A DNA stretch of 64,000 bases from Corallococcus interemptor (GCF_042231085.1 NZ_CP102579.1), one strand, 5' to 3'. Positions 29,544 to 55,788 are shown, numbered from the stretch's first letter. Numbers and translations are program-made. Notes: generated by a model not told the origin, from the sequence alone.

Positions 29544-30578
29544 ATGTCCAGGTTCCAACCGGAATTCAAAAGTGTGGCGTTGCTGTTTGCCATTTGCGTC
29601 ACGAGCGCGGTCACGGAGGCCTCGGCCCAGGGGTCCGAGGGACTCACGGGGGTCTATTCGAACAAGGGCGGGACGCTCGCCATCGTCGAGGGCAGCAACG
29701 AGACGCTGGTGCACTTCTCGGGTTCCTTCCCGCAGGGCAGCAGCGCGGGCACCTGCGATTGCGCCCTGGTGGTGCGGAAGAAGACAGCAACGAACTGGTC
29801 ACTTCAGCAGGCGGGCGAGGCGGACGCCTGGACGCTGCGCGTCAACCCCAAGCAGTTCGTGCTGGAGTCCGGTCCGTCACCGTCCTGTTGCGGGGCGGGC
29901 TACCCGGGCAGGGACACGTTCGCCCGGAGCACGGTCAAGCCGCTGGGCATCTGCAAGGTGAAGGTGTCCAAGGCGGGCTTCCACGCGTCGGACGCGGCCA
30001 ACACGCCGCGCAAGGCGTTCGTGGTGTCCGGCGACGCGGTGGAGGCGTACGTCGACCCGGTGGAGCCGGACTTCCTCGCCGCGCGCTTCCAGGGGCCCCA
30101 GAAGGCCACGGCGGGGCTGCTCAAGCGCGAGGACCTGGACTGCGCGGCGGAGTCGGCGCCCACGGCCACGAAGGCGCCGGTGTCCGCGGACAAGCTCCAG
30201 CCCTTCGCGGGGACGTGGGTGGAGCTGACGCGGCAGGGCAAGGGCTTCGTGGTGCTCAAGCCCTGCTCGGCCGCGACGCGCAGCTTCACCGTCAAGCCCG
30301 CGACAGGCGAGGTGGAGGTGCAGTTGGGCCAGGAGTCCACGACGCTGAAGGTGACGTCCGTGGAGCCCGGCAAGGGCGCCGGGGCCTGGGTGCTGGGGCT
30401 CACGGCCGCGGACGGCAAGCCGGAGGCGCTCCAGTGGAAGACGGCCAACGCCGCGAAGGGCACCGTGTCCGTGAACAGCCCGGACCTCTTCTCCCAGAGC
30501 CACGACTACGTGCGCCAGGAGAAGCAGTCCGCCTTCCCGTCCAAGCAGGAGACGGGGTGTGACGAGTACGAGCGCTAA
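29544..30578 (+). CDS. Secreted hypothetical protein
   Basis: AGGAGGG RBS; signal peptide (ALLFAICVTSAVTEASAQG); Cys-containing, no recognised domain. Confidence 0.55.
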   Translation: MSRFQPEFKSVALLFAICVTSAVTEASAQGSEGLTGVYSNKGGTLAIVEGSNETLVHFSGSFPQGSSAGTCDCALVVRKKTATNWSLQQAGEADAWTLRVNPKQFVLESGPSPSCCGAGYPGRDTFARSTVKPLGICKVKVSKAGFHASDAANTPRKAFVVSGDAVEAYVDPVEPDFLAARFQGPQKATAGLLKREDLDCAAESAPTATKAPVSADKLQPFAGTWVELTRQGKGFVVLKPCSAATRSFTVKPATGEVEVQLGQESTTLKVTSVEPGKGAGAWVLGLTAADGKPEALQWKTANAAKGTVSVNSPDLFSQSHDYVRQEKQSAFPSKQETGCDEYER

Positions 30579-39680: not shown

Positions 39681-40469
39681 TCATCCGCGAAGGTCATCCG
39701 CCTTGCTCACACGCCCTCGGAAACAGTTCGCCCGGTGCCACGCCAGCGCCGTGCGGTGCAGTGGGTCAATCCGCGTCAACGAGAGTCCGGGATTCAAGCC
39801 CAACCGCTGGGAGTCCTCCGGGGACAGGGCCGAGGAGATGACCATTCGTCCCCCGTCCTCAAAAGTGATGAACCCGCGGTCGAACGCGGCGTCGAGGTGG
39901 ACCGCCAGCAGGATGCCGTTGAACACGTTGAGGCGCTCCTGGTCGCTCTCACACTTCGCCCACGGTCTGATGTGGCTGGCGCGCAGGAGTTCGGGCTCGG
40001 AGAGTCCGGTGACCGCGCAGCGGCCCTCCCAATAGCGCAGAAGTCCCTCCCGGAAGAGGTCCTGCCCCACCCGCTGCACCGTGAGGCGCTCGACTTCGGT
40101 CGTCTGAGGCAGCTCCTTCGTGACGCGCTCGAACAGGTGGAACAGCTCGTCGGGCAACGTGCCCGAGAGTTGGTATGCGCGTCGGACCACGCGGTGAAGC
40201 TGCATGAGGTCCGCGACCCGCCGGGCCGCCGCAGCCCCTGAAGGCAACGCGGCGGAGGTCTCGCCGGTCAACGGAAGCAGTTCGGCCGCGACGGCTGGCT
40301 GTGAAAACGCGACGAGCCACGCATCATCCATGGCGCCCAGCCACAGCCGCAACGGGACCTGGGTACTCGCAAAGGACAGCCACGGGTCCACGGCCGTCTC
40401 CGGGACGTCAAAGCCGTTGTCCTGGGCGACCTTCTCCAGCAGCGACCTTTGGACCAGGGTGAGCGTCAT
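39681..40469 (-). CDS. HNH endonuclease (PF13391-like)
   Basis: RCAVTGLSEPELLRASHIRPWAKCESDQERLNVFNGILLAVHLDAAFDRGFITF. Start overlaps MTase stop by 4 bp. Confidence 0.75.
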   Translation of the reverse strand: MTLTLVQRSLLEKVAQDNGFDVPETAVDPWLSFASTQVPLRLWLGAMDDAWLVAFSQPAVAAELLPLTGETSAALPSGAAAARRVADLMQLHRVVRRAYQLSGTLPDELFHLFERVTKELPQTTEVERLTVQRVGQDLFREGLLRYWEGRCAVTGLSEPELLRASHIRPWAKCESDQERLNVFNGILLAVHLDAAFDRGFITFEDGGRMVISSALSPEDSQRLGLNPGLSLTRIDPLHRTALAWHRANCFRGRVSKADDLRG

Positions 40470-43400
40470 CGGGAACGCGAGGGATGGCGCTGCGAAGCAT
40501 GCGCTGGCGGCGGGACGAGCGGGGATTCGTATGCGCCGGTCCGGCTGGCGGCGGCCAGCGCATCATAGCGCTCGAGGATGAGGCGCTTCGTGCGGTACTC
40601 GCCATGCTTCTTCTCGTCGTTCCGTTTCACGATCGGGAAGGTTTCGAGGACGTAGTCCGTGTCGTCGCGCGAGAGGCCATAGAGGTGGAAGAAGGCGGCG
40701 TCGAGTTCGGCACGCAGGAGCGCACGGCGCTCGGGATCCCAGCGGAACGGCGGCCCCTCGAAGCCCGCGTCAGTCCCGAAGCCTTGAAGGTCCCAGGCCG
40801 TGTAGGTCAGCTCAACAACTCGGGGAAGGATCCACTCCGAGACGCTCTCGCTCATCGACCAACTACACTTCACCCCAAAGACTGCCGGCGGAAACACCGG
40901 AAGTTGCCTCATTGTGAAGTACTTGAGGCTCGTGCCACCCACTTTTTGTCGACAAGCATAGTCGAGGGCGAATGACGCCACGTTTGCGTAGAGAGAGACA
41001 GCCTCTGTTGGCCTGACCCTCGGCAGCATGAGCAAGAACTTGTCGCCCACGGCCGCACGCGGAATCAAACACGGAATTGCAGTGCGCCGATCTGTGCTAC
41101 GGCAGATGTCTCGCCAGCCGATAAACCAGTCCTGGGCCCAAACGCCCTTCATGCGTTCATAGACCTCCGTGGCGGCAACCCAGTAGTACGGGTGCGTGAG
41201 TCGATCTGGTTCGGCGTGCGCCGCGTCATCGAACTCGGGCAGTTTCCCCTGATTCTCCTGTGCCTGAGTCTGCCCCTCATACGTGCCGAACCGATGGTCG
41301 AACTGGTGGACCATCTTGGCCTCCATGAGAGGGAGCCAGATTTCCATCTCCTTCTTGAAGTGGTTGCCGTGCAGCCTGTAGCCAGCAGCCTCAAGACGCT
41401 CGCGAGACCAGAACAGGTCTGAGTCGTTCGCCATATGAATCATGGCCATGAAGCGTAATCCCCAGGGATTGCCGCCCGCCGTGTCATTCTCACGCCACAG
41501 CACGCCTGCGCGCCGATACATGCGCAGATTCAGCTCCGCGTCCCGCTGCGAGCGGAACGTCGGACAGGTCTTCGTGTTCGGATTGAGGAGTTCAAAGTCA
41601 GCGGAGGAAAGCGTGAAGTGCCTTGATGTATCGGCCAATGCCAACACCTGCCGCGCGAAGAACACGAGATCGGCGTTTTCAGTACCACCGCCACGGTCGA
41701 TGGTCAGCAGCGCGAACTTGAATGCGTGGTGGACGCCGGGAAAGACGAACTCCTCGTTCTCGAAGCCGAAGAACGACGCAAGTTCACGTCCGGAGATCAA
41801 CGTACCGAAGTACTCCTTGGTCGTATCGTCAGTGGCAAGCCCCGTGGGCACGATAAAGCCAGCACGCCCATTTCGGGCAGTTACGGTTCGGTTGTGCTCC
41901 GCGAACAGTGCATAGGTATTCACGTCACCCTTGCCGCAAAGAGGGAACCGGCCCGCCTGCCGCACGAAGTGGCTCTGTCCCTCTGCCTCGCGGCTGGCCT
42001 GGCTCCACTCCTCCCACAAGCGGGGGTCTTCCTCCGGCAGCTTCGCGATGAGCTTCTTCCTCACCGCCGCGTTCTCTGCGGACGCAATGGCCGCACTGCG
42101 CGACGCGAAGAACTCCTGCTCCTGCAACTTCACCCGCTCCCAGGGCGGGTTGCCCAACACGACGTCGAAACCGCCACGAGCGAAGACCTGCGGGAACGCG
42201 AGCTGCCAGTGGAAGAAGCCATACCGCCGAGTGAGCCCTCGCACCGTCTCGACCATCAGAGGGGACGGTTCGACCTCCCCGTCCCGCAGCAGCCGCCATC
42301 CATCCTCCGTCGGGGCAACCTCCACCACCTTCGCCGTCGGCGCGGGCTTCGGCCACACGAAGGTCGAGCACCAGGTGTCCGCGACGAGCTTCAGGTGGGC
42401 GAACGCCTTCGACTCCCGCAGGGCCTCCCAGTCCGCCTCCTTCTTCGCCAGGGCCGTGACGTCCAGGTCCTGCGCCGAATCGAGGGCCACCACGGCCTTC
42501 TCCAGCACCAGTGACTCCTCCCGGGCCACCCCAAGCGGCAACGAGGCCTGCTTCTTCGCCACCTTGTTGCGCTTCTTCAGCGCGCTGGCCGTCTTCCGGT
42601 CATCTTCGCCAATAGGCGCCCAGGCCTCGTCGGGGATGCCGCCGTCCATGAGCCCCGGCAGGGTGCCCAGCAGCGCGTTGCCGCACTGGACGTGGGAGTC
42701 CAGGAACGAGAGGGGAAGGCCGGGCTCGACGGCCTCCATCCACAAGCCCACCTTGCAGAGTTCCACCGCGAGAGGGTTCAGGTCGACGCCGAAGATGCAG
42801 CGGCTCACGACCTGGCGCAGGGCATGCTGGTACTGCTTCGGTGATGCGGTGCCCTTCGCTTCGTGTTGGGCCACCCGTGCAGCCAGCCGCCGCGCCGCCG
42901 CGAGCAGGAAGTGACCACTCCCGCACGCGGGATCCACCACCGTCAGCCCCAGCAGCGCCTCTGCCTTCGCGTCCGGACGCGCGGCCTCCGCGCGCTCCAT
43001 GACCGGCGTGAGGGCCGAGTCGAGCAGCACCTGCACGAGGCTGTCCGGCGTGTAGTAGCTCCCCGTCGTCTTCCGGGCGTGCCCCTTGCCCTCCGCGCCC
43101 TCGGCGAAGGTGAACTCACGGCCCCCGTTCACGACGCGCGGGGTGAGTTCGAGCAGGCTCTCGTAGACGCTCCCCAGTTCCTCCGGGCCCATGTCGCGCC
43201 AGTTCACGCGGGCCAGCCCGCCGGCCTCCTGCAGCCAGGACAAACGATAGAGCGCATGAAGGAAGAAGCGGTTCTCGATGCGGCCCGCGTCCAGGTCCCG
43301 GCACCGCGCGGGCGCGAAGATGCCCGCGAGCGCCGGCAGCCCGAGTGCCGGCTGTCCCGTGGCCAGCCCCCGGAAGGAGACCTTCACTGCCTCCCAGGCG

Positions 43401-44467
43401 TCGTGGTGGCGATCATGCGCGCTGCGGCGCACCACCCGCTCCCGCATTCCCTGGAGCGAGTAGCCGCCGGCATAGAGCGCCTTCGCCTCATCCGGGGTGC
43501 CCTCCGGATGCAAGAGCCCACGCTCCTCCACGGTCAACAGGAAGATCAGCCGGTAGACGAGCCGCAGGAGCTGCTGGAAGTAGTCGTGCTCCGTCACCGT
43601 CCCCTGGTCGAGCGCCTGACGCAGCGCCTGGTTGTCACGGTGGGCGAGGAACCCCTGCCCCAGCGACCGCAGCGCCGCCTCGACGCCATCGCGGAGCTGC
43701 TCCCGGGCCCGCGTCCCTTCCTCCCGTCCAAGGGCGCGCCATTGCTCGAGCGGGCATTCCGAAGATGCCTGTCCTGACCGGCCAAAGCGCGTCTGGTGCA
43801 TGAGCAGCCAGAGCGCGGCGAAGTCCGCGAACCGGCCGCCCGTGAAGATGGCCTGCAGGTCCACCTCCAGCCATGCGGGCCGGGTGAGGCTGACATTGTC
43901 GCGGAGCACGCGCAGCGTCAGCCCGTCCGTGACGAGCCCCCACATCGCGCCGTCGTTGGCGTTGAGGAACTCCTGACACAGGCCGAAGGGCGTCCGCCGC
44001 CGGGACTCCTCGCCAAAACTGGCCGAGAGCTTGTCGAGCGCGCTCTCCTTCGCGCCGGGTGGCAGCGGCCCGGCGATGACCACAGGCACTCTTCCATCGA
44101 GCGCCGCCCACCCGAGGGGGTACGAGCGCTCGCCGGAGGTGACGGTGCCCACCTGCTTCAATGACCCGAACCCGAACACCTTGGACAGCAGCCCGGTGAC
44201 GAAGTCCTCGGCGGCGGCCCGCGAGTCACCGCCCGCGGCCCGCGCGGCCACGAAGTCCCGCCACTTCGGCTCCGCGATGCGCCAATACCGGCCAATCTCG
44301 TCGCGGATCTGCAACCCCTTTTCGATGTCGTAGTCCGCGGGCGCCTGCCGGGGCGCCTCGAGCTGCGCCACCTTCGCGAGCCACTCGGGAGACAGGAGGC
44401 CGCCCTCGATGGCGAGCGCATCGAAGGCGAGCCGCGACTCGCGGCGGAGACGTCTCGACGCCATCAC
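40466..44467 (-). CDS. N6-adenine DNA methyltransferase, PglX/DrmMI-like (1333 aa)
   Basis: Catalytic motif IV NPPW (VVLGNPPWERV); SAM motif (VVDPACGSGHFLL); size and N-terminal region typical of BREX PglX / DISARM DrmMI. Confidence 0.8.
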   Translation of the reverse strand: MMASRRLRRESRLAFDALAIEGGLLSPEWLAKVAQLEAPRQAPADYDIEKGLQIRDEIGRYWRIAEPKWRDFVAARAAGGDSRAAAEDFVTGLLSKVFGFGSLKQVGTVTSGERSYPLGWAALDGRVPVVIAGPLPPGAKESALDKLSASFGEESRRRTPFGLCQEFLNANDGAMWGLVTDGLTLRVLRDNVSLTRPAWLEVDLQAIFTGGRFADFAALWLLMHQTRFGRSGQASSECPLEQWRALGREEGTRAREQLRDGVEAALRSLGQGFLAHRDNQALRQALDQGTVTEHDYFQQLLRLVYRLIFLLTVEERGLLHPEGTPDEAKALYAGGYSLQGMRERVVRRSAHDRHHDAWEAVKVSFRGLATGQPALGLPALAGIFAPARCRDLDAGRIENRFFLHALYRLSWLQEAGGLARVNWRDMGPEELGSVYESLLELTPRVVNGGREFTFAEGAEGKGHARKTTGSYYTPDSLVQVLLDSALTPVMERAEAARPDAKAEALLGLTVVDPACGSGHFLLAAARRLAARVAQHEAKGTASPKQYQHALRQVVSRCIFGVDLNPLAVELCKVGLWMEAVEPGLPLSFLDSHVQCGNALLGTLPGLMDGGIPDEAWAPIGEDDRKTASALKKRNKVAKKQASLPLGVAREESLVLEKAVVALDSAQDLDVTALAKKEADWEALRESKAFAHLKLVADTWCSTFVWPKPAPTAKVVEVAPTEDGWRLLRDGEVEPSPLMVETVRGLTRRYGFFHWQLAFPQVFARGGFDVVLGNPPWERVKLQEQEFFASRSAAIASAENAAVRKKLIAKLPEEDPRLWEEWSQASREAEGQSHFVRQAGRFPLCGKGDVNTYALFAEHNRTVTARNGRAGFIVPTGLATDDTTKEYFGTLISGRELASFFGFENEEFVFPGVHHAFKFALLTIDRGGGTENADLVFFARQVLALADTSRHFTLSSADFELLNPNTKTCPTFRSQRDAELNLRMYRRAGVLWRENDTAGGNPWGLRFMAMIHMANDSDLFWSRERLEAAGYRLHGNHFKKEMEIWLPLMEAKMVHQFDHRFGTYEGQTQAQENQGKLPEFDDAAHAEPDRLTHPYYWVAATEVYERMKGVWAQDWFIGWRDICRSTDRRTAIPCLIPRAAVGDKFLLMLPRVRPTEAVSLYANVASFALDYACRQKVGGTSLKYFTMRQLPVFPPAVFGVKCSWSMSESVSEWILPRVVELTYTAWDLQGFGTDAGFEGPPFRWDPERRALLRAELDAAFFHLYGLSRDDTDYVLETFPIVKRNDEKKHGEYRTKRLILERYDALAAASRTGAYESPLVPPPAHASQRHPSRSR

Positions 44468-47247
44468 TTCACCTCCGGGAGCAGCACGAAGACACCGATG
44501 ACATCCACCGGGAGCAGCGCCTTGACCGAGTAGCTTCCCCGGTCGCCTGCCGCCTCCCGGACGCGCCGGTGGTCCGCGAGCAGGGCCTGGGCCCGGCCCT
44601 CCGCCACGGCGGCGAGCTGCTCTCGCGACGACTCCACCAACGCGAGCGCCCGGGTGAGCTCGCGGTCACGCACGTGCGCAGGGGGATCCCCTGCGGGAGG
44701 GAGCGCAAGGAGCGCCAACGCCTCCGCCCCTTCACGAGGCGGGCCGCTCGCGCCCCATGAGACGGCCGTCGACTCCTCGACCAGCAGCGTGTGGGTCCGC
44801 GAGCCCTTCACCGTGGTGAGCTGGTGACGCGGATGCAGGAGCACCACCGTCGTGCGCTCCGTGACGCCGGAGGACTCCCAGCACCCGAGGCGGCCCAGGA
44901 CGGAAGGGTCGGTCGAGGTGCCGTCTCCGGCGGAGGTCAGGGTCCGCTCGAGCAAGGTCTCGGCCAGCACCGCCACGAGGGGATGGGCCCGCTGAACAAG
45001 TCGGCGGTGCTCGCCACCGGGAGGCTCGAAATCCACCAGCAGCGAGCCTGCCAGCCCTTCATTCTCCAGCCGCTCGCGAACCTCGGCCGGAAGCGCGGCG
45101 AGCTGTAGACGCACGCCGCGCTTGAGGCGCTCCGGCGCGGCGCCAAGCCGGGCCATGGCCCGTGAGACGAAGCGCTCGACGTCCTCCCGCCCGCCGATGG
45201 CCTGACGCACGCGCTCGTACTCGGGCAGGACGTCGCCGGGCCGCAGGCGCTTCTGCGCGAAGACGGTGCGGTTCTTCTGGGCCCGTTCGGCCGCGCTCTG
45301 CCACGTGGCCTCGATGGTGGCCGCCGCGTCTCCCCCGAAGTCGAGCATCGCCTGTCTGCCAGGCTTCCGATGCTTCAGCAGCACCGCGCGCATCAGCGTC
45401 TGCGTCAACGAGTGGCCCTCGTCGGGGAGCGGCACCGGCACCCCGAGTTCCCGGCGGATCCGCTCTGCCTTTCGCAGGATGACCTCGAGCACCGCGCCAT
45501 CGACGGGGTTGTTCTGACCGTAGAGGAGCGTCGCCCGGACGACTGGCCGGCTCTGGAGGTAGCGGTCCACGCGGCCTTCCCGCTGCTCATGCCGCATCGG
45601 ATTCCACGAGAGGTCGTAGTGGATGACCGCGTTGAAGGACTCCTGCAGGTTGACGCCCTCGGAGAGGCAATCGGTCGCGATGAGGAGGACCTTGCCTTCC
45701 TCAGCCCGCAGCGCCGCCACGGCCTCCCTGCGCTCGTCCTGCGTCAGCTCGCCCGTCACCACCTTGATCATCACGTCCGGGAACTGCTTCGCGAGGTGGG
45801 CGCCCAGGTAATGCGCCGTGGCGATGTAGCGGCAGAAGACGACGGGCGCGAAGTCCTCCCCGAGCAGCTCCTTCACATGCCCCACGAGGGTCTTGAGCTT
45901 CGGATCTCCCGACTGCCCGCTGAGCTCCTCGGCCTGGGCGATGAGCTTCTGGAGGTCCGCGTCTCCAGTCGCCGCCGGGGGCTCAAGATCATCCTCCGGG
46001 AGGGCGTCGTCGCCTCCGTCGAAGAGCCGCTCCTCCAGCTCCGCTTCAGCCTCTTCTCCTGGCGTCGCGTGGGTCCGCAGGGCCTGCACCGCGGCCCGTG
46101 GGCTCGACGCCACGCAGCGCATGAGGGCCAGCGTGCCCCAGAAATTCAGGCGCTGGCGCCGGGCATCCCCGCTGGCCGACTCGATGACGGTGGCGCAGTA
46201 GTCGAGCACCGCGTCGAAGAAGCGCTCCCAGGCGCCAGAGAGGGTGTACGTCAGCTCCCGGGTCTGCCGGTCCGGGAAGAGTTCTCCCTCTCGCCACTCG
46301 TCGAGATCCGGGCGTCGCCGCTGCACGAAGTGCCGGGCCAGGCGCTCGCGCAATGCGTTGCGCTCGTCCCCCTGCACCACTTCCAGCCGTTGGAACGCAG
46401 GGTCGAGCAAGCCGAGCAGCCGGTAGAAGCCCGCCTCGTCACCGCTGTGGGGCGTGGCCGTCAACAGCACGAGGTGACGGTCCGCGCGCTGCGAGAGGGC
46501 GCGCAGAAGCTCATAGCGCTGATGCCGTCCCTGACCCGTCGCCGCGCAGGTGTGCGCCTCGTCCACGATGACGAAGCCGGGGCAACTGCGGAGGAACTCG
46601 TCCCGGCGGTTCTGGCTCTTGATGTAGTCGAGGCTGACGACGGTGAAGGGATGTACCTCGAAGAGGCTCGTCGTCTGGGGGATTGCCTTTTCCAGGCGCG
46701 ACGCATTGGCCGCCGTGACGGCGACCGCACGCAGGTGGAAGCCCACGTCCAGCTCATGCACCCACTGCTCCACGAGGTGTGGCGGACACAGCACGCTGAA
46801 CCGGTCCACGTCGCCGCGGTCCAGCAGTTCGCGGACGATGAGCGCCGCCTCGATGGTCTTGCCAACACCAACGTCGTCAGCCACCAGCAGGCGCACCGTC
46901 TCCTGCCGCAAGGCCATCATCAGCGGCACGAGCTGGTAGGCGCGGGGCTGGATGGAGATCTGCCCGAAGCCGCGGAAGGGACCCGCGCCCCGTCGCATCG
47001 AGAGCGTGAGCGCGTCACGCAGCAACTGCGCCCCATCCTGGCTCGCGCGCTGGGCCAGCGTCGGCGGGGGGAAGGCGGCGTCCGACACCGGCTCCGCCTC
47101 CAGCGGGAGGTGAATGAGGATGGCGTCGTCCTCGCTGCCAGCCACCGGCCGGACCCGGAGGGTCTCCGCACTGCCGCCGTTGAGGACGATCCACTCCCGG
47201 CCACGAGCCCGTACGAGGCTCCCCGGGCTCCAGGTGATGGTGTTCAT
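44464..47247 (-). CDS. SNF2-family helicase (DrmD-like)
   Basis: Walker A VGVGKT; DEAH box IVDEAH; LLTATP; helicase C motifs ([24 protein letters not shown]). Overlaps MTase start by 4 bp. Confidence 0.8.
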
Positions 47248-47268
47248 GGTGTGGTGGTACCCCGCCGG

Positions 47269-50200
47269 TCAGCCCTTGCCCAGCGCCTTCGACAGCTCGA
47301 CGAAGCGCCCCGCCCACTCTTGCTCCTCATCGCCGAAGACCAGGGACGTCAATGACAGGGCATCAAAGCGCTCCAACAAGGAGGGTGCTGGTGCTCCAAG
47401 ACACACGACGACCCGATCCTGTTTCCATACGAAATCGGCGCCCTCCCAGTCCGTGGCCTCGGGCCGCGGCAGCCCCTTCCTGTCGAGGCGATGCAGGAAC
47501 CGCACGCGGGGGCCCCCGCCGAGGAGTTCGGCGGGCGTGACCGGAATCGGCTCGCGAAGCTCGGTCACGCCACGGGCCAGACGCAGGAGCAGCTCTCGGA
47601 CGGGAACGTCACGGCGGTCGATCTGCTCATGGTCCGGCTGGTTGTAATAGGACATGAGACAGCGATAGCAGGCCGCGACGCAGTGCGTGCCCGCCTTGTC
47701 CTTCAGCTCCGCCGCCGCCGCCGGAACCCCCTGCTCAAGGTCGAAGTGCATGACCTCCAGCGCTCGCCGGGCCACCACTGCGAGCGCCTCGGGCTGGGCG
47801 AGCACCTGCGTCAGCACGCCTGCCCCGCCCTCGGTCGCCTCGTAGAAGAAGATGCCGCGCCGGTCGTCACGGTTTGGCATGGGCTCGCCGAGCACCTCCG
47901 CCTCCTCAAGTTGGAAGTGCGCCTGCAAGCCACGGAGGAGCGCGTACTGGAGCGTCGCCATCGACCGCTCGTCCAGCGCGGCGGCGGGCCGCACGAGCAG
48001 CGCGTTCTTCCGGTCCTGCACCATTGGCACGATGCGCTGGCGGGGGTTGCCGACGTCGTTTCCATCCTTCTCTTCGTCCCCCCCCTTCTCCCAATCACCG
48101 CTCACGGGATCGATGGTGAAGCCGTGCTCGCTGCGCCGAGCACGCCGGCGCAGCCCGAGGTTCAACCGGGTGATGGTGGCGCTGGGGCCGTACGTCAGCC
48201 ACAGCAACCCGCCGGACGCATGCCTGGCCACGCCCTCGCGCACGTCCGGGCGCCCCTCACGGTCGGCCCAGGCGAAGGTGGTCTGCAAATCGAACCCTTG
48301 CCGCTGCCGCTCCTCGTCATTGGCGGTGATGCGTTCAGCGCGCTTCGTACCGACATTGTCGATACGGAAGACCTCGCGCACGTGAAGGGCGTCCCCCAAC
48401 GGCTGACGGCACGCATGGCAGACCGATGGGTCCACGGAGAAGTGCCCTGCCCCACAGCCGCGGCAGAGCCTTACCGACAGCGTGGGCAACCTGGCGTCCG
48501 CACCACCCGTCGGATGGGAGAGCGAGAGCAGCGCCCGCACGACACGATAGGCACGCCCCTCGTGGTAGATGAGGCTGCGGGGACCGAACTCCGACAGCGC
48601 CAGGAAGCGCGGTCTCTGGAGATAGGTCTGCCGGCCCCGCCCATCTTCGGTCGCCGGCACGTACGCCATGAGCGGCAATCGCGGGAAGTTGTACCCGGGA
48701 AGGAAACCCTCCGTCGCGAGGTAGCGGTACGTGTAGAAGTCGCTGCGTCCGGAGTCCGTCCCCTGATCCAACAGGTTGAGCTGGTTGACGGCCTCGCCGT
48801 GTCTTCGTTCGGCGGCCCGCCTCTCTGTCGCCCGGCTGGTATGCGCATCAATGACGCGGCGTGACTCCTCTTTCTGGAGGTGTGCCGCCTCGTAGAGGCC
48901 CCTCCAGCGGCGGAAGGCCTCGTCGAAGCGCTTGAACGCGTTCGACGCCGTGCGCCGGGCCAGCGCTTCGATACCGTCGAACCAGGGCGCTGCTTCGGGG
49001 GTGAGTTCGTCCTCCAGCATGGACAAGAAGCGCGTCATGGCCTCCGCGCTTCGCGCCGTCACTTCGGGCGCGGAGAGGGCCTGGGTCAGGTCGGCCTGGA
49101 GCGGCCACTCCGGGCGCTGTTCGAGCCTCACGAGCTTCGCAATGGAGTCATCAAGCGGACGCGCCGTGTTGGCGAGCCAGATGGCGTGCAGGTGGCTTTC
49201 GACAAGGTCCTGGTTCGCCAGCTCCAGCATCGGGGGCCGCACGACGCCATGCACCATGCCCGGCGGGTCCCGGAAGAAGTACTGGTCATGTGGGCTCTGG
49301 GCCGCACAGTAGGTGAGCACCAGGGCCGCCTGCCCGCTGCGCCCGGCGCGACCGCTGCGTTGGGCGTAATTGGCAGGCGTCGGCGGCACGTTGCGCAGAT
49401 AGACGGTGTTCAACTGCGAGATGTCGACCCCCAGCTCCATCGTCGGGCTGCAGAAGAGGACGGGAAGGAATTCCTTCGGTTCGTCGAGCTGGGCAAGCGT
49501 CACGGCGTCGGCGGCAAGCTCCTGCCGCTCCTTGTCACCGTAACGAAAGCGTTTCTCCCGGATGATCCGCCGGGCGTCCTCGACCTGGGCGGTGTGTTCG
49601 CGCGCTTCGAACCCGAACAGCGGGTGCGAGGGGGATGCGAGCAGCTTCGCCAGGGACCGGTAGAGGTCGCGGAAAAAGCGGTTGATCCGATCAGGCCGTT
49701 CCGGGTCCTCCCCGCTGCCCAGCTTGAAACGCACGTGGGCGTCCTTCAGCCGCCAACCCATGTGCCCATCGAAGGGCGTAGGCTCTTCAATGACCAGGCC
49801 ACGGGCGGCGACGAGCAGTACCTGGATGATCTGCTCCAGGTCGGCGGCGCTCTGCGTGCGGGCACGCGCATCTCCCCCCCAATGCCGGCTCGACCGGAGC
49901 GCCTTTCCCAACGCGCTGCGGCTGCCACCACGTACGACGAGGTCCTCGTCGCGCATGGTCAGCCCTTTGCGGGATGGTGCGGACACCATCAGCCAGCGGG
50001 AGGGCCGCGTCTTCTCGTCGCTCCCGAAGGCCCAGGGAGTCCGGAGCTGGGAGAATGCATTGGCCCGAAGCTGCTCCACCGAGGTGGCGTTCAGCACCGA
50101 CGATTCGACGGCCATCCACTGACGCATGTGATCAAACAGCACACGGTAGACGCCTCGGCGCACGTCGGGCGTGGCCTCGCGGAGCAAGGCCGGCGCATGG

Positions 50201-52527
50201 GCGAAGGCAGACTCGTCCGAGACGATCTCATCCAGGTGCTCGTATTCGACTTCAACCAGGCGGAGCTGCTCGAGGTTGGGATTGGTGTACCGCCAGCCGC
50301 GCCGTTGGTCGAACCACACACGGTAGGCGAGGACCTCGCGCAGGGACTTCTCCGCCGACAGCCGGGCGAAAGGCTTCGCTTCAGGATCCTTCATCCATTC
50401 GCCGCGCAACCCTCTGTCGTCGAGGCGATGGAAGCCCAGCGCGCGCTGCTGCGCCTCCCCGAGTTCCGCGCTCGAGAGGCCCTTTTCGCCTGCGGCTGCG
50501 AGCGCACCGAGAAAGCCCGCGCGCAAGATGCAGACGAAGAGGAAGTCGTTGAAATGGCCTGCCTGTAGCGCGGCGTCCTGCCGGTTATCAGAGAAGCCGA
50601 GCATCTTCCGGGTAAATACATCCAGGCCCGATCCAGCTCCGTGCATCCATCGCAGGGAGCTCAACGTCAACACCGTCGTCGCGGAGCTGCGCCCTTCCGC
50701 TGTCAGCGATGCCAGCCGCGTGCGGTCGCGCGAGGTACCCCCATGGACCTCCTTGCACACGACGCAGAAGCCGAAGCGGCCGGGGAGGAACCACATGGGC
50801 TGCCCTTCGGATCCCGTCTTGCCGGTAGGCGTGACGCGATGGAGTTCAAGCCTCCGATGCCGACGAGAAGCCTTGAGCGCGTTCTTGCCATCCAGCCACG
50901 ACTCTGGATAGGTCTCATCCTTGCCCTTGAAGTCCCACTCGGGGTCTTCCGTCGCATCCCGTGTCAGGAATCCGAACCGCTCTCCTTCTTCATTTTCGGC
51001 GGCGGACGTCTCCTCTTCCTCGTCGTCGTCACGGCCAGGAGGAGCATCATCGATGGAGCGGTCGATGAACTCGAGCGCCAGCCCGTCCGTCTTGAGCTTT
51101 ACCGGGTGATACTCATGGCCGCACTGGCGGCAGAAATGGACCGCATAGAGCCGCTTCTGCTCCGCCCCAGGGAGGAACTTCTGCGCATCGACCGTTACTG
51201 CCCGGGCGCCAGGCGGCTCAAGGGTCGCGTATGCGTTCGAGGCACCTGAGATGAACTGGTGGAGTTTGAAGGCGAAGAAGGGATTCGTCGCCCCCGTCTT
51301 GTCGCCGCGACGATCCTTCTCCGGCTGACTGCTCAGGAGGAGGAAGTGGCGCAGGCGCTCGCGACAGAGGCTCTCCGGGCAGCCTGACTCCTGGGCCAGG
51401 AGCTGGACCGCGGCGCTGACGGAGAGGGGCCTCGCGCGGCGCCATGTCTGGTCGTCGGGGTTGACTGTAATGCCAAGGCGGGTCTCCACCCAGATGGAGA
51501 GCGGATGGGAGGTCAACACCGAGTCACGCACGTCACGCGCGAGTGGCTGCTCGAGCGCCTTCGCGAGTGAGGGCATCAGCGCTGCCACCTGATGGGGGCC
51601 CGTCGTCTGGCGACGCAGCCACTCGGTGATGACGTGCGTCTCCGGCACCTGCGCGCCGAAGAGCTGTGAGGCGACTCGGCTCACGACGGAGCTGGTACTC
51701 CTGCCCTGCTGCAGGGAGTCCGCGCTCGCCATCGTGGCTGACGTACCGATGCACTGAAGCCCTTGCGGAGCGAGGCGTTCCCGAACGCGTCGAACGAGGA
51801 GCGCCACATCCGCCCCCTGGCGTCCACGGTAGGTATGGAGTTCATCGAGGACGAGAAAGCGCAACCCCTCGCAGTTCGCCATCACCTGCCGATCGACGGG
51901 ATCCTGCCGCGTCATCAGCAGCTCAAGCATCATGAAGTTCGTCAGGAGGATATCGGGTGGATTGCGCGCAATGGCTTCCCGCTCCTGTTGCTTTTCCGTG
52001 CCGGTATAGCGAGCGTAGGTGACCGGCGCATCGCCGGACTTGCCCAGATACTTCTCAAGTTCCTCGAGCTGCGAGTTGGCCAGGGCGTTCATCGGGTAGA
52101 TGATGATGGCGCGTGTTCTGCGAGGAGCCCCGGCGTCACGCTCCTTCAGCACGGCGCTGACGATGGGCACGAAGAAGCACAGGGATTTACCTGAGCCTGT
52201 GCCGGTGGTGACGACGTAGCTCGCCCCCGTCGTGGCCAGGATCGCCGCGAGTTCCTGGTGCTTGTGCAGCGGAAGAGGATGGCCCGCAGTCGAGCGGAAC
52301 AGGTCGGGGCACTTCGGGTGCAGGACATCGCCCTTGACCAGTTCAGCCTGCGTGCGGCCTTCCTGGTAGTGCGGGTTCAGCTGGATCAGGGGCTCCGGCC
52401 AGTAGGTCCCTGCCTCATAGAAGGCCTTGAGCTTCGTGCGCAGGTCCGCGGCGCGAATCGTGGTGAATGATGTGGCGAACCGCTCGTACTCGCCGATGAC
52501 GCTGTCCCGCAGCGCGAAAACGTCCAT
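47269..52527 (-). CDS. 1752-aa DEAD/DEAH helicase fused to DUF1998 (DrmA-DrmB fusion-like / DruE-like)
   Basis: Walker A TGTGSGKS; DEAD-like LVLDELHTYRG; TSATM; helicase C (AQRSGRAGRSG). Cys clusters CRQCGH...FCVVCKE, CRGCGAGHF...CHACRQ and C-terminal CVAACYRCLMSYYNQPDHE typical of DUF1998 zinc ribbon. Confidence 0.8.
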   Translation of the reverse strand: MDVFALRDSVIGEYERFATSFTTIRAADLRTKLKAFYEAGTYWPEPLIQLNPHYQEGRTQAELVKGDVLHPKCPDLFRSTAGHPLPLHKHQELAAILATTGASYVVTTGTGSGKSLCFFVPIVSAVLKERDAGAPRRTRAIIIYPMNALANSQLEELEKYLGKSGDAPVTYARYTGTEKQQEREAIARNPPDILLTNFMMLELLMTRQDPVDRQVMANCEGLRFLVLDELHTYRGRQGADVALLVRRVRERLAPQGLQCIGTSATMASADSLQQGRSTSSVVSRVASQLFGAQVPETHVITEWLRRQTTGPHQVAALMPSLAKALEQPLARDVRDSVLTSHPLSIWVETRLGITVNPDDQTWRRARPLSVSAAVQLLAQESGCPESLCRERLRHFLLLSSQPEKDRRGDKTGATNPFFAFKLHQFISGASNAYATLEPPGARAVTVDAQKFLPGAEQKRLYAVHFCRQCGHEYHPVKLKTDGLALEFIDRSIDDAPPGRDDDEEEETSAAENEEGERFGFLTRDATEDPEWDFKGKDETYPESWLDGKNALKASRRHRRLELHRVTPTGKTGSEGQPMWFLPGRFGFCVVCKEVHGGTSRDRTRLASLTAEGRSSATTVLTLSSLRWMHGAGSGLDVFTRKMLGFSDNRQDAALQAGHFNDFLFVCILRAGFLGALAAAGEKGLSSAELGEAQQRALGFHRLDDRGLRGEWMKDPEAKPFARLSAEKSLREVLAYRVWFDQRRGWRYTNPNLEQLRLVEVEYEHLDEIVSDESAFAHAPALLREATPDVRRGVYRVLFDHMRQWMAVESSVLNATSVEQLRANAFSQLRTPWAFGSDEKTRPSRWLMVSAPSRKGLTMRDEDLVVRGGSRSALGKALRSSRHWGGDARARTQSAADLEQIIQVLLVAARGLVIEEPTPFDGHMGWRLKDAHVRFKLGSGEDPERPDRINRFFRDLYRSLAKLLASPSHPLFGFEAREHTAQVEDARRIIREKRFRYGDKERQELAADAVTLAQLDEPKEFLPVLFCSPTMELGVDISQLNTVYLRNVPPTPANYAQRSGRAGRSGQAALVLTYCAAQSPHDQYFFRDPPGMVHGVVRPPMLELANQDLVESHLHAIWLANTARPLDDSIAKLVRLEQRPEWPLQADLTQALSAPEVTARSAEAMTRFLSMLEDELTPEAAPWFDGIEALARRTASNAFKRFDEAFRRWRGLYEAAHLQKEESRRVIDAHTSRATERRAAERRHGEAVNQLNLLDQGTDSGRSDFYTYRYLATEGFLPGYNFPRLPLMAYVPATEDGRGRQTYLQRPRFLALSEFGPRSLIYHEGRAYRVVRALLSLSHPTGGADARLPTLSVRLCRGCGAGHFSVDPSVCHACRQPLGDALHVREVFRIDNVGTKRAERITANDEERQRQGFDLQTTFAWADREGRPDVREGVARHASGGLLWLTYGPSATITRLNLGLRRRARRSEHGFTIDPVSGDWEKGGDEEKDGNDVGNPRQRIVPMVQDRKNALLVRPAAALDERSMATLQYALLRGLQAHFQLEEAEVLGEPMPNRDDRRGIFFYEATEGGAGVLTQVLAQPEALAVVARRALEVMHFDLEQGVPAAAAELKDKAGTHCVAACYRCLMSYYNQPDHEQIDRRDVPVRELLLRLARGVTELREPIPVTPAELLGGGPRVRFLHRLDRKGLPRPEATDWEGADFVWKQDRVVVCLGAPAPSLLERFDALSLTSLVFGDEEQEWAGRFVELSKALGKG

Positions 52528-52740
52528 GCGTCCCAGTCTCCCCTCAAGAGCCCCTGGAGGCTATCGCTCGCCATGAAGGCCGCCCAGCAGTCAAATGCAG
52601 AAGACTGGATTCGAGCCATGGCAGGCCGCACGCTGAGTGTGCCCGACCAGAAGCGTCATCAGCGGAGAAGGGGTATTGCGCGGCTGAATCTGGGTCGGAG
52701 GGCGTCGTGTGCGCCCCCTGTTGAACCGCGAATGCCGCAC

Positions 52741-52766
52741 TGTGCTCCTTCAGGGAAAGGAGCACA
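52741..52766. terminator. Perfect 10-bp stem / 6-nt loop hairpin 18 nt downstream of the 268-aa gene stop (no U-tract)
   Basis: tgtgctcctt-caggga-aaggagcaca. Confidence 0.35.
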
Positions 52767-52783
52767 GGACAAACAGGAGGCGC

Positions 52784-53473
52784 TCAGCCCCGGGCGGCGC
52801 GGGCGTCACGGCCCCGGGCTCGGGCGGCTTTGGAGAGCAGGTCGCTCCCCTTCTCCTCGCCCTTCATCCATTCCTTCATCGCGGGCACCACCTGCTTGCT
52901 CCAGGCGCGGCCGGCGCGCACGGCCAGGAAGTCCTGCACCAGCGCGTCCACGATGGCGGAGAGCTTCTCGGTCAACTCCAGACGCTCGGAGAGCTGATCA
53001 TCCTCTTCCTCCGTCATGAGCGCGGGCAGCTTGGCGGCGCGGATGTCCAGGAACTCCGAATCCAGGGTGACTTCGTACTCGCGCTCGCCGTGCGACAGGC
53101 GCAGCCGCGCCTGCGACACCAGCAGGCCCCGGTCCAGCGAGTGGCGCACGTTCTCCGAATACGGCGCCAGCGTTCCCTTGGCGCTCATCTCCGTGACGTC
53201 GCCCGCCACGCCCCGCAGCACCACCTTGCCCAGGAAGAGGACGACGACACCCGCGCCGTCGTGCTCGACCAGCGGGTCGCCCGACTCCGAGCGCCACAAC
53301 AGCCACGTCATGAACTCGCGGCCCAGGTAGGCCCGGCCGCGCAGGAGCTGTTCGCGCGCCTTGCCCTTTTCGACCTCGGCCTCGTCCTTCTCCTCCTCCG
53401 TGGCGGCGCCGTCCACGCCGACATCGCCCCGCGCGAACGCCGCCTCTTCCCTCGCCTGCTCACGCCTCGCCAT
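52784..53473 (-). CDS. Hypothetical protein (Glu-rich N-terminus; 3' end forms island-flanking repeat)
   Basis: ORF, ATG at 53473; no recognised domain. Confidence 0.5.
   Translation of the reverse strand: MARREQAREEAAFARGDVGVDGAATEEEKDEAEVEKGKAREQLLRGRAYLGREFMTWLLWRSESGDPLVEHDGAGVVVLFLGKVVLRGVAGDVTEMSAKGTLAPYSENVRHSLDRGLLVSQARLRLSHGEREYEVTLDSEFLDIRAAKLPALMTEEEDDQLSERLELTEKLSAIVDALVQDFLAVRAGRAWSKQVVPAMKEWMKGEEKGSDLLSKAARARGRDARAARG
52790..52870. repeat. Direct repeat copy B (inside 3' end of 268-aa gene)
   Basis: See copy A. Encodes C-terminal ...KGEEKGSDLLSKAARARGRDARAARG. Confidence 0.7.
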
Positions 53474-54110
53474 GGGCGCCCTCCACCGAAGCCGTCGCCG
53501 GCAGGTCCATGCCAATGAGCTCCGCCGTGGGGCCCAGGGCCTTCTCGTCGATGCCCGCGCGCTGCGCCATGGACGCGGGAGTGATGCCAATCACCTTCAC
53601 CGCCAGGGCGCCTTCCAGCGCCACGCAGATCTCATCCACCGTCTTGCGCGACGCGGCCCAGACCTGCACCGTGTGCGTCTTCAGGTTCCACGTCACGTCC
53701 AGCGTGCTGGTGCGCGGCACCGCGCGCTGACGCAGGAGCTGCTTGAGCTCCGCGCGCTGCTTGTTCTTCTCCGCGCGCGCGGGCGGCCGGCCGTTCTCCT
53801 TGGCGAAGGCGGCGGACCACTTGTCCAGCTCCGACTTCATCATCGACGCGGGCACCTTCAGCGTGTCGATGCGGAAGGCGAAGAGGGCGTACTCGCCATA
53901 GAAGAGGTTGCCGGTGGCGAACTCGGAGGACTCCGGGTTCTCCAGCTCGACAAACCCCGCGGCGCGCTCCTCCTCGGAGCGGCGGTCGATGGGCTCGAAT
54001 GCATGGGACTTGAGTCCCTTGGTCATCCAGCGCTTGACGTCGGACGGCGCATCCTTGGCCGGCTCGGTCCGGAAGCGCGAAAAGGTCACGGCACCACGTA
54101 GGACAGGCAT
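53460..54110 (-). CDS. Hypothetical protein, weakly RdgC-like N-terminal region
   Basis: MPVLRGAVTFSRFRTE...FEPID resembles RdgC N-terminus; low certainty. Confidence 0.4.
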   Translation of the reverse strand: MPVLRGAVTFSRFRTEPAKDAPSDVKRWMTKGLKSHAFEPIDRRSEEERAAGFVELENPESSEFATGNLFYGEYALFAFRIDTLKVPASMMKSELDKWSAAFAKENGRPPARAEKNKQRAELKQLLRQRAVPRTSTLDVTWNLKTHTVQVWAASRKTVDEICVALEGALAVKVIGITPASMAQRAGIDEKALGPTAELIGMDLPATASVEGAHGEA

Positions 54111-54261
54111 GGGGCGCGGCAGGATGGGGGGCCTGTGACGCCGCGTCAAGGCACTCGGTGTGGCTGGACGCGAAGCACCGGGAATAGGTCGCGCCAGAAG
54201 CCGTTTGCCCGGGCGCCGTCCAACCGTGCACGTCTCCGCCCCACCCCGCTGGCGGGAATCC

Positions 54262-55788
54262 ATGACACTCCCTGGCACGCGACATACGGTGGCCGCCGCC
54301 ATGCGCCGCGCCCTCCTGCCCGCCAGCGTCGTTGCCCTCCTCCTGTCCGCCTGCACCCACACGCCCGCCACGCCGGGCGGCGCCCCGCGCGACACCCTGC
54401 CCGGGGTGACGAAGGCCCTGCTGGAGACCCTGGAGGCGGACGGCGCGCTCGCGGGCGCGTACGTGGTGGACGCGCGCACCGGCGAGCCCCTCTTCACCCA
54501 CCGCGAGAACGTGCGGCTGTTGCCCGCGTCCACCATGAAGGTGGTGTCCACCTCCGCCGCGCTGTCCGCGCTGGGGGCGGACTTCCGCTTCACGACGCCG
54601 GTGTTCCTGGAGGGCTCGCAGACAGGAGGCCTGTTCCTGGGCGACGTGGTGGCGCAGGCGTCCGGGGACCCGTCGCTGGGCTCGTGGCGCTTCCCGGAGA
54701 CGGCGCTCGCGTGCGACCGCATCGCGGAGGCCTTCCAGGCGCGCGGCATCCACCAGTGGCGCGGCAACGTGCGCATCTCCGGCACGGACGGCCTGGACGG
54801 CGGCATGGGGCCGGGCTGGGCCTGGGATGACGCGGCGTACGCCTACAGCGCGCCGCCCACGCCCTTCGTCTTCCGCGAGAACGTGGTGGACCTGGCGCTG
54901 GCGCGCGCCCCCGGCGCCACCTGCGCGGACGCGCCCTCCGTCCAGTGGACCCCCGCCTTCGCCACGCTGTCCGCGGTGGTGAACGTGGACGTCAACGCCG
55001 AGCGCGCGAACCTGGCCTGCGTGCGCGGAGGCGGCGGAGTGCGCTGCACGTGGCGTTCGCCCACGGGCGGGCCCTGCCCCCAGTCCGCCGCCGTGAAGCT
55101 GTCCGTGGACGCGCCGGAGGCCCTCTTCGCCGCGTGCGTGGACGACGCGCTGGCGCGGCACGGAGTCACGCGGCTGCCGCTGTCCCTGGAGGCCCCCACC
55201 CCGCCCCTGCCCCCCATGCCGTCACCGCTGGTGGAGCTGATCAGCCCGCCCCTGTCGGAGCTGGTGCGCGCGACCAACAAGGAGAGCCTCAACCTGTACG
55301 CGGAGCGGCTGGGCATGCGCTTCGCCCGCGAGCGCACCGGCCAGGAGGGCTACACCGCGCTGCGCACGGCCCTGGTGGCGGAGCTGGCGCGCCGGGGCGT
55401 GCCCACCAAGGACCTGCGTCCGGTGGATGGCAGCGGCCTGTCCCGCTACAACCTGGCCACGCCCCGGGGCATGGCGCGCGTGCTGCTCACCAGCCTCCAG
55501 GAGCCGTATGGCGCCGCGCTGGTGGACAGCCTGCCGGTGCTGGGCGTGGACGGGACGCTGGCGGGCCGCAAGACGACGGCGTCCACCTCGGGCCGCCTCC
55601 GCGCGAAGACGGGCACGCTCACGGGCCAGAAGTGCTTCGTGGGCGTGGCGGAGCGGCCGAACGACACGGAGCACCCGCGCGTCGTCTTCGCGTTGATGCT
55701 CGGCAACATGGACGAGGGCACCAGGCCCAACGCCAACGAGACCTTCGACACCTTCTCCACCGCCCTGGTGGAGCTGCCCCTGCGCTGA
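54262..55788 (+). CDS. dacB: D-alanyl-D-alanine carboxypeptidase/endopeptidase (PBP4, S13), lipoprotein
   Basis: SxxK (STMK), SxN, KTG (RAKTGTL). Lipobox LLSAC; start may be ATG 54301. Confidence 0.85.
   Translation: MTLPGTRHTVAAAMRRALLPASVVALLLSACTHTPATPGGAPRDTLPGVTKALLETLEADGALAGAYVVDARTGEPLFTHRENVRLLPASTMKVVSTSAALSALGADFRFTTPVFLEGSQTGGLFLGDVVAQASGDPSLGSWRFPETALACDRIAEAFQARGIHQWRGNVRISGTDGLDGGMGPGWAWDDAAYAYSAPPTPFVFRENVVDLALARAPGATCADAPSVQWTPAFATLSAVVNVDVNAERANLACVRGGGGVRCTWRSPTGGPCPQSAAVKLSVDAPEALFAACVDDALARHGVTRLPLSLEAPTPPLPPMPSPLVELISPPLSELVRATNKESLNLYAERLGMRFARERTGQEGYTALRTALVAELARRGVPTKDLRPVDGSGLSRYNLATPRGMARVLLTSLQEPYGAALVDSLPVLGVDGTLAGRKTTASTSGRLRAKTGTLTGQKCFVGVAERPNDTEHPRVVFALMLGNMDEGTRPNANETFDTFSTALVELPLR

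Follow-up and report, generated by a model that had tools for sequence, protein, structure and literature searches.

The minus-strand operon at positions 39,681–52,527 of a 64,000-nucleotide stretch of DNA from Corallococcus interemptor (GCF_042231085.1, NZ_CP102579.1), hereafter called the window, is very probably an ARMADA type I anti-phage operon, consisting of armC, armA, and armB together with a gene for an HNH nuclease. ARMADA was named in 2025 in a bioRxiv study by Bell et al. (PMC12458937), in which it was described as related to DISARM, with a helicase closest to DruE of Druantia, and as the link that had been missing between the two systems. The system combines a YprA-like helicase, a BrxHII-like SNF2 helicase, and a PglX-like methyltransferase (MTase), and in type I the usual gene order starts with the helicase, followed by the SNF2 and MTase genes (PMC12458937). 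According to the same study, the nuclease of ARMADA is a Vsr-type PD-(D/E)xK domain fused to the C-terminus of the helicase, and type I helicases are characterized by CxxC modules inserted in RecA2, by one such module in the OB-CON-DUF1998 module, and by BrxA-like, MarR-like, and coiled-coil HTH insertions.

The identity of the system follows from the fact that its helicase is a catalogued protein and that the partner genes and their order fit the published definition. ArmC of the window is identical over 1752 of 1752 residues to XHF21422.1 (Corallococcus interemptor CP102579.1, NR800_13090), an accession that Table S1 of Bell et al. (PMC12458937) carries under the entry "ARMADA Type I helicase". 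The same entry is given there to AKQ68205.1, MDC3958545.1, and CAB3794359.1 (M. hansupus, P. jinanense, and P. caffeinilytica), which are full-length homologues of ArmC with 57–59% identity. A helicase of the type I clade, an adjacent SNF2 gene, an adjacent gene for an MTase with an NPPW motif, the expected gene order, and the CxxC modules are all found in the operon. An initial annotation made from the sequence alone had seen here an uncharacterised variant related to DISARM and Druantia; the kinship to both stands, but the class already has a name, the system is known, and this instance is already catalogued. The related type II is already called by DefenseFinder, as reported in a 2026 paper.

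Some points weigh against the assignment. It rests on the published tree, Table S1, and the operon partners, and in pairwise BLAST comparisons ArmC is no closer to E. coli type II ArmC than to DruE. Only tests of type II, and none of type I, were found in the papers examined, and the system's methylation motif, its trigger, and its nuclease step are all inferred. The comparable similarity of ArmC to DruE and to type II ArmC fits the published picture, in which the two ARMADA types lie far apart, next to Druantia (PMC12458937).

The four-gene operon and its proteins

The initial annotation had placed four tightly coupled minus-strand genes at this site (Table 1), and the list of open reading frames (ORFs), the GC content at third codon positions (GC3), and the gene junctions all agree with it. 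GC3 lies between 0.82 and 0.88 in all four genes, which is the third-position bias typical of real genes. Read directly, the junction of armC and armA is a gap of 21 bp (47248–47268). The SNF2/MTase junction reads GTGATG and yields an overlap of 4 bp with a GTG start at 44467 or of 1 bp with an ATG start at 44464, and the MTase and HNH genes overlap by 4 bp in an ATGA junction (40466–40469).

These four genes are the inherited unit that is common to the nearest relatives, since the next downstream gene starts at 39378, the DNA homology ends at 39718, and the three downstream genes form a toxin cassette. In the closest relative, Myxococcus sp. RHSTA-1-4, the homology is confined to 39718–52590, which comprises the four genes plus an upstream stretch of about 60 bp. 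Further same-strand overlaps occur downstream of the operon (39681–39684 and 35757–35760). The true start of the next downstream gene, at 39378, is marked by a ribosome-binding site (AAGGAG) and by an encoded signal peptide and leaves a spacer of about 300 bp. A seven-gene operon was ruled out by this start with its strong ribosome-binding site, by the end of the homology, and by the separate sitBAI-type cassette. Promoter and terminator scans at both ends of the operon gave nothing informative.

The contents that had been proposed for the genes, a helicase with DUF1998, an SNF2 helicase, an NPPW MTase, and an HNH protein of the PF13391 type, were confirmed by Pfam domains and motifs. ArmC contains the Pfam domains DEAD, Helicase_C, and MZB (formerly DUF1998; residues 1526–1624, with a cysteine cluster at 1616–1623). 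Its RecA1 motifs are intact (Walker A GTGSGKS at 109–115 and DELH at 228–231), and CxxC zinc modules are recognized at the sequence level as CRQC (466–469), CVVC (588–591), CRGC (1355–1358), and CHAC (1370–1373). In ArmA, the domains SNF2-rel_dom and Helicase_C are accompanied by the intact motifs GVGKT (127–131) and DEAH (229–232). ArmB matches Eco57I and N6_Mtase and has an intact motif I (DPACGSGHF, 512–520) and motif IV (NPPW, 773–776). The HNH protein matches HNH_2 (PF13391) with E = 7e-13; it consists of an N-terminal alpha/beta domain (1–120) and an HNH domain of the VcaM4I/TagI type (123–251), in which H166, N184, and H191 are intact.

The C-terminal half of ArmB is variable, from directly after NPPW onward. 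DNA homology to the operon of a Myxococcaceae metagenome-assembled genome (MAG; locus L007) breaks exactly over 40603–42138 (ArmB residues ~777–1288) and weakens over the same residues in Myxococcus sp. RHSTA-1-4, ArmB is 60% identical in L007 as against 82–86% for the helicases, and the lowest GC of the region (0.625–0.64) coincides with this half of the protein. Target recognition probably resides in residues ~777–1288, and the pattern suggests exchange or rapid evolution of this part. The N-terminal 460 residues of ArmB gave no match in sequence-level searches, and no nuclease or helicase domain was detected in ArmB with Pfam, PADLOC, NCBIfam, and a PDB sequence search, the last of which returned one marginal match, to MmeI (E = 0.0013).

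The HNH gene and the tail of ArmC

The nuclease of ARMADA is expected at the C-terminus of the helicase, and in a structure model covering residues 1456–1752 of ArmC a Vsr-like fold is retained there, with D1698 (ADFVW) still in place. The FIDGPHH core and about 10 following residues are replaced or deleted (VCLGAP). The tail of the window protein, "ADFVWKQDRVVVCLGAPAPS", is thus without the DG..HH core, carries a deletion of about 10 residues, and has no Pfam match. Two tail forms can be told apart at the sequence level among the related type I helicases of the 85 loci compared (L001–L085): an intact form, "ADFFY...FIDGPHH...VVRF", which matches Pfam DUF559 above threshold, and a shorter degenerate form. 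Judged from sequence only, the Vsr-like nuclease domain of ArmC may be inactive in this operon.

The order helicase, SNF2, MTase is kept in every one of these 85 loci that is long enough to judge. A search with six aligned SNF2 proteins brought up 80 genome loci spread over many phyla; these were compared with the four window proteins by tblastn, and the HNH gene was counted in the 54 loci with at least 4.4 kb beyond the MTase. In 42 of these 54 loci, the MTase gene is followed on the same strand by a full-length HNH homologue, including the N-terminal domain; this homologue is directly adjacent to the MTase (<250 bp) in nine and 0.9–5.5 kb apart in the other 33. In the reverse test, in which an HNH alignment was compared with metagenome contigs, an ARMADA MTase was found upstream on the same strand in 24 of the 27 loci that extend at least 6 kb in the upstream direction, and one more of the 27 has an SNF2 gene alone. 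The gene contexts of single loci gave a matching picture. The divergence of the HNH protein follows that of ArmC and ArmA (Spearman 0.84–0.85, n = 40 loci) as tightly as that of ArmB does. By these comparisons, ARMADA type I operons in this clade end in a conserved 3'-terminal HNH gene. The initial annotation had taken it as a simple replacement of the phospholipase D (PLD) nuclease of DISARM; this view did not hold, as the nuclease of ARMADA is the Vsr-type domain on the helicase and HNH is an additional conserved gene.

A different arrangement was observed in a Myxococcota MAG contig (L049), in which an HNH homologue directly precedes the SNF2 gene instead of following the MTase. This locus may be a rearranged variant of the operon.

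In the relatives, the interval between armB and the HNH gene serves as a hotspot for the insertion of other defence modules, with HNH as the constant 3' end. The recurrent content is an SMC-type ATPase of ~660 amino acids, LmuB-like/DUF2326, in about 18 loci; others are Septu PtuA and PtuB, a GmrSD-like protein, an AbiL-like ATPase, PDC-S02 (DUF1016/YhcG), and toxin-antitoxin pairs. The operon of the window represents the compact four-gene form. No such hotspot is described in the text of the ARMADA-defining paper (PMC12458937).

Since the Vsr-like domain of ArmC is without the conserved DG..HH core, the downstream HNH protein could be the one that does the cutting in this operon, a proposal held with about even confidence. 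Of the 38 loci in which the Vsr tail is degenerate, 35 carry the gene, compared with 7 of the 16 in which a DUF559-like tail is intact (Fisher p = 3e-4). Several observations weigh against the HNH protein as the cutter. The correlation with the tail is confounded by the phylogenetic relatedness of the loci, and loci with an intact tail have longer MTases, so that their HNH gene may fall beyond the 10-kb flank limit; a GC3-based ORF scan of the HNH-less loci for continuation past the fetched flank was uninformative. D1698 is kept in the Vsr-like domain, and the type I Vsr domain was labelled 'active?' by Bell et al. (PMC12458937). Furthermore, the closest solved relatives of the HNH domain, VcaM4I, TagI, and McrA, are modification-dependent type IV enzymes that act autonomously.

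These relatives lead to the alternative that the HNH protein stands outside the ARMADA machinery, as an autonomous type IV modification-dependent endonuclease encoded last in the operon, which would provide additional protection from phages whose DNA is modified, like BrxU or GmrSD in BREX loci. The two-domain layout, with a putative N-terminal DNA-binding domain, is that of such an enzyme, the stand-alone defence genes between MTase and HNH in the relatives (Septu PtuAB, GmrSD-like, AbiL-like, PDC-S02) clearly mark the neighbourhood as a defence-gene sink, and the text and available supplements of Bell et al. (PMC12458937) make no mention of HNH as an ARMADA component. The linkage, however, is tight and reciprocal, as counted from both the SNF2 and the HNH side, and the gene stays on the same strand and in the last position throughout, even where 1–5 kb of other genes are inserted before it. 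In addition, it overlaps armB in the window, its divergence matches that of ArmC and ArmA as well as ArmB's does, and its N-terminal domain contains no EVE, SRA, or PUA reader of modified bases. An autonomous enzyme is the main rival reading, but considered less likely than an effector role. It is proposed, tentatively and at somewhat less than even confidence, that HNH is a dedicated fourth subunit and the effector nuclease of a large type I subtype, adopted after decay of the Vsr domain, and that the armB–HNH interval is a conserved insertion hotspot.

Proposed function and genomic surroundings

The best-known relative in functional terms is ARMADA II, which protects E. coli directly and non-abortively and requires all four of its genes as well as the NPPW motif (PMC12458937). 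By analogy with ARMADA II, DISARM, and BREX, a mechanism can be outlined for the operon of the window. ArmB would methylate adenine in a strain-specific motif that is read by its variable C-terminal half, and would so mark the host DNA as self. ArmC, a 3'-5' translocase of the YprA type with zinc modules, and the SNF2 motor ArmA would load on unmethylated phage DNA and translocate along it. A nuclease, in this operon putatively the downstream HNH protein, would then destroy the invading DNA, and the cell would not be killed.

Type I is the more widely distributed of the ARMADA types, and a compact myxobacterial four-gene copy in which all catalytic motifs are intact is a reasonable candidate for a test. 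The linkage of HNH and the lost Vsr core provide a concrete, testable idea of the protein that cuts the DNA, and the variable half of the MTase and the insertion-prone interval show a route by which ARMADA loci diversify. The residual interest of this locus thus lies in the HNH association, in the decayed Vsr domain, and in a type for which the papers examined report no experimental test.

Downstream of the operon lies a polymorphic toxin cassette of the sitBAI type, a kind that is delivered by myxobacterial outer-membrane exchange. The SitA-like gene overlaps the upstream SitB-like gene by exactly 11 bp, and an overlap of 11 bp has been reported for all three sitBA pairs of M. xanthus (PMC5562445). 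The three genes of the cassette gave no match in Pfam, PADLOC, or NCBIfam. Further downstream, a bacterial homologue of the eukaryotic major vault protein contains Pfam Vault repeats 1–4 and MVP_shoulder, with E down to 6e-45. Directly upstream of the operon, an ORF with a partial RdgC (recombination-associated) domain overlaps a second ORF with no family match, and the two are candidate alternatives for the real gene.

The GC content of the window is ~70%. The region 33000–53000, which includes the toxin cassette and the ARMADA operon, has values of 0.62–0.70 versus 0.70–0.74 in the flanks, as would fit an island gained by horizontal transfer. A marker of such an island, be it an integrase, a transposase, or a tRNA gene, was not found in the window.

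Table 1. Features of the window and of related loci; positions in the window are counted from its first nucleotide, and those of related loci within the respective locus.
Feature	Location	Coordinates	Strand	Description
armC	Window	47269–52527	minus	YprA-like DEAD/DExH helicase, 1752 amino acids
Degenerate Vsr/DUF559-like domain	Window	47272–47538	minus	ArmC C-terminus, residues ~1664–1752
armA	Window	44464–47247	minus	BrxHII/RapA/DrmD-like SNF2 helicase, 927 amino acids
armB	Window	40466–44467	minus	PglX/DrmMI-like gamma-class N6-adenine DNA methyltransferase, 1333 amino acids
Variable C-terminal half of ArmB	Window	40604–42139	minus	Residues ~777–1288, from directly after NPPW
HNH nuclease gene	Window	39681–40469	minus	262 amino acids, PF13391; 3'-terminal gene
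sitBAI-type toxin cassette	Window	34426–39378	minus	Polymorphic toxin cassette
SitB-like gene	Window	37936–39378	minus	Type I signal peptide
SitA-like gene	Window	35757–37946	minus	Lipoprotein, LTAGC lipobox, C-terminal D...ExK-like motif
Candidate immunity gene	Window	34426–35760	minus	4-bp overlap with SitA-like gene
Major vault protein homologue	Window	30575–33187	minus	870 amino acids
ORF with partial RdgC domain	Window	53460–54806	minus	448 amino acids
Overlapping ORF	Window	52784–53590	minus	268 amino acids
armB–HNH insert	L008	17808–19790		
armB–HNH insert	L034	16733–18767		
armB–HNH insert	L028	19960–21723		
armB–HNH insert	L013	15438–16742		
armB–HNH insert	L029	17093–18433		
HNH homologue upstream of SNF2 gene	L049	1845–5397		Myxococcota MAG contig

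Comparison with known systems

The operon had originally been read as a class 1 DISARM variant, in which drmA and drmB are fused, drmD and drmMI are present, and the PLD nuclease gene drmC is replaced by HNH. There is a likeness to this class in the DrmD-like SNF2 protein and the DrmMI-like adenine MTase beside a DUF1998 helicase, and in a presumed methylation-based discrimination of self and non-self; ARMADA is, moreover, DISARM-related by definition. The profile searches that the initial annotation had suggested support this in part: ArmA can be aligned over its whole length with NCBIfam DISARM_DrmD (3e-90) and matches PADLOC DrmD (4.5e-78), and the best PADLOC match of ArmB is DrmMI (2e-64), although over residues 461–778 only. 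The curated DISARM cut-offs, however, are missed. ArmA reaches 304 bits versus 610 required for DrmD, and ArmC scores 14.3 bits on DISARM_DrmAL, the cut-off of which is 999. The window helicase belongs to another branch of the YprA family and has its OB-CON-DUF1998 module fused, instead of a separate DrmB; neither a separate DrmB nor a PLD protein such as DrmC was found among the operon and flanking genes scanned, and the published tree places the helicase in the ARMADA/Druantia branch, not in the DISARM/Dpd branch. Membership in DISARM is effectively refuted and is left as a highly improbable reading.

The top PADLOC match of ArmA is 'DpdE' (PDLC02853, 5e-182), ahead of DrmD and of BrxHI/BrxHII (4e-59). 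A Dpd system was rejected, as no DpdA–C (7-deazaguanine) genes occur among the genes scanned and NCBIfam DpdE gives 201 bits versus a cut-off of 500.

The helicase itself has its best PADLOC matches in DruE3 and DruE1 (1e-85), as against 6e-16 for DrmA over the Helicase_C stretch only, which bears out the DruE-like character that had been suspected in the fused protein. With Druantia type III (DruH, DruE) it shares the large CxxC-bearing insertion between the RecA domains and DUF1998, and E. coli DruE is as similar to it as E. coli ArmC. A Druantia system built around this helicase is nevertheless extremely improbable: no match to DruA–D, DruM/F/G, or DruH was obtained with Pfam and PADLOC among the adjacent genes scanned, and the neighbours are instead the SNF2, MTase, and HNH genes, beyond which lie the toxin cassette on the downstream side and, on the upstream side, RdgC-like and peptidase genes. 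Differently from Druantia type III, the helicase is partnered by a methyltransferase and an SNF2 protein, and its C-terminus has a Vsr-like fold and no PLD domains.

Just as remote is a conventional restriction-modification system (type IIG/ISP with helper helicases) or a BREX subtype with BrxHII and PglX, which is suggested by matches of the MTase to Eco57I, MmeI, type IIG models (9e-49), and weakly PglX, and of the SNF2 protein to the BrxHI/BrxHII models; the MTase has no detected nuclease domain and an N-terminal part without match, its NCBIfam PglX scores are at most 57 bits versus cut-offs of 400–900, PglZ, BrxC, BrxA, BrxB, and BrxL are absent among the operon and flanking genes scanned, and the conserved partner is a YprA helicase of 1752 amino acids found in neither type of system. 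The initial annotation had named such a placement as the outcome that would speak against it, and this outcome did not arise.

ARMADA type II, which has been experimentally validated (E. coli NCTC 12900, ATCC 8739, EDL933), has in common with the window operon the SNF2 protein, the NPPW MTase, and a YprA-like helicase with a Vsr-type C-terminus, and presumably the same direct, non-abortive mode of action. When compared with the ARMADA II/Druantia III locus of E. coli ATCC 8739 (L172), ArmC is 22–36% identical over the helicase cores, ArmA 26%, and ArmB 25–27%. The gene order of type II is reversed (armA, armB, armC, armD) and there is no HNH gene; the fourth gene encodes ArmD, a RelE-GajB-like UvrD helicase, whereas the window operon contains no UvrD-like gene. 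The E. coli type II ArmC is also longer (2113 amino acids) and has extra EEP and Vsr domains.

Among the known systems, ARMADA type I provides the closest comparison. The operon differs from the published description in the 3'-terminal HNH gene, which does not appear in the paper's text, and in a Vsr-like domain without the DG..HH core that is kept by other type I helicases. It shares with type I a helicase listed in Table S1, the core order ArmC, ArmA, ArmB, and the CxxC zinc modules.

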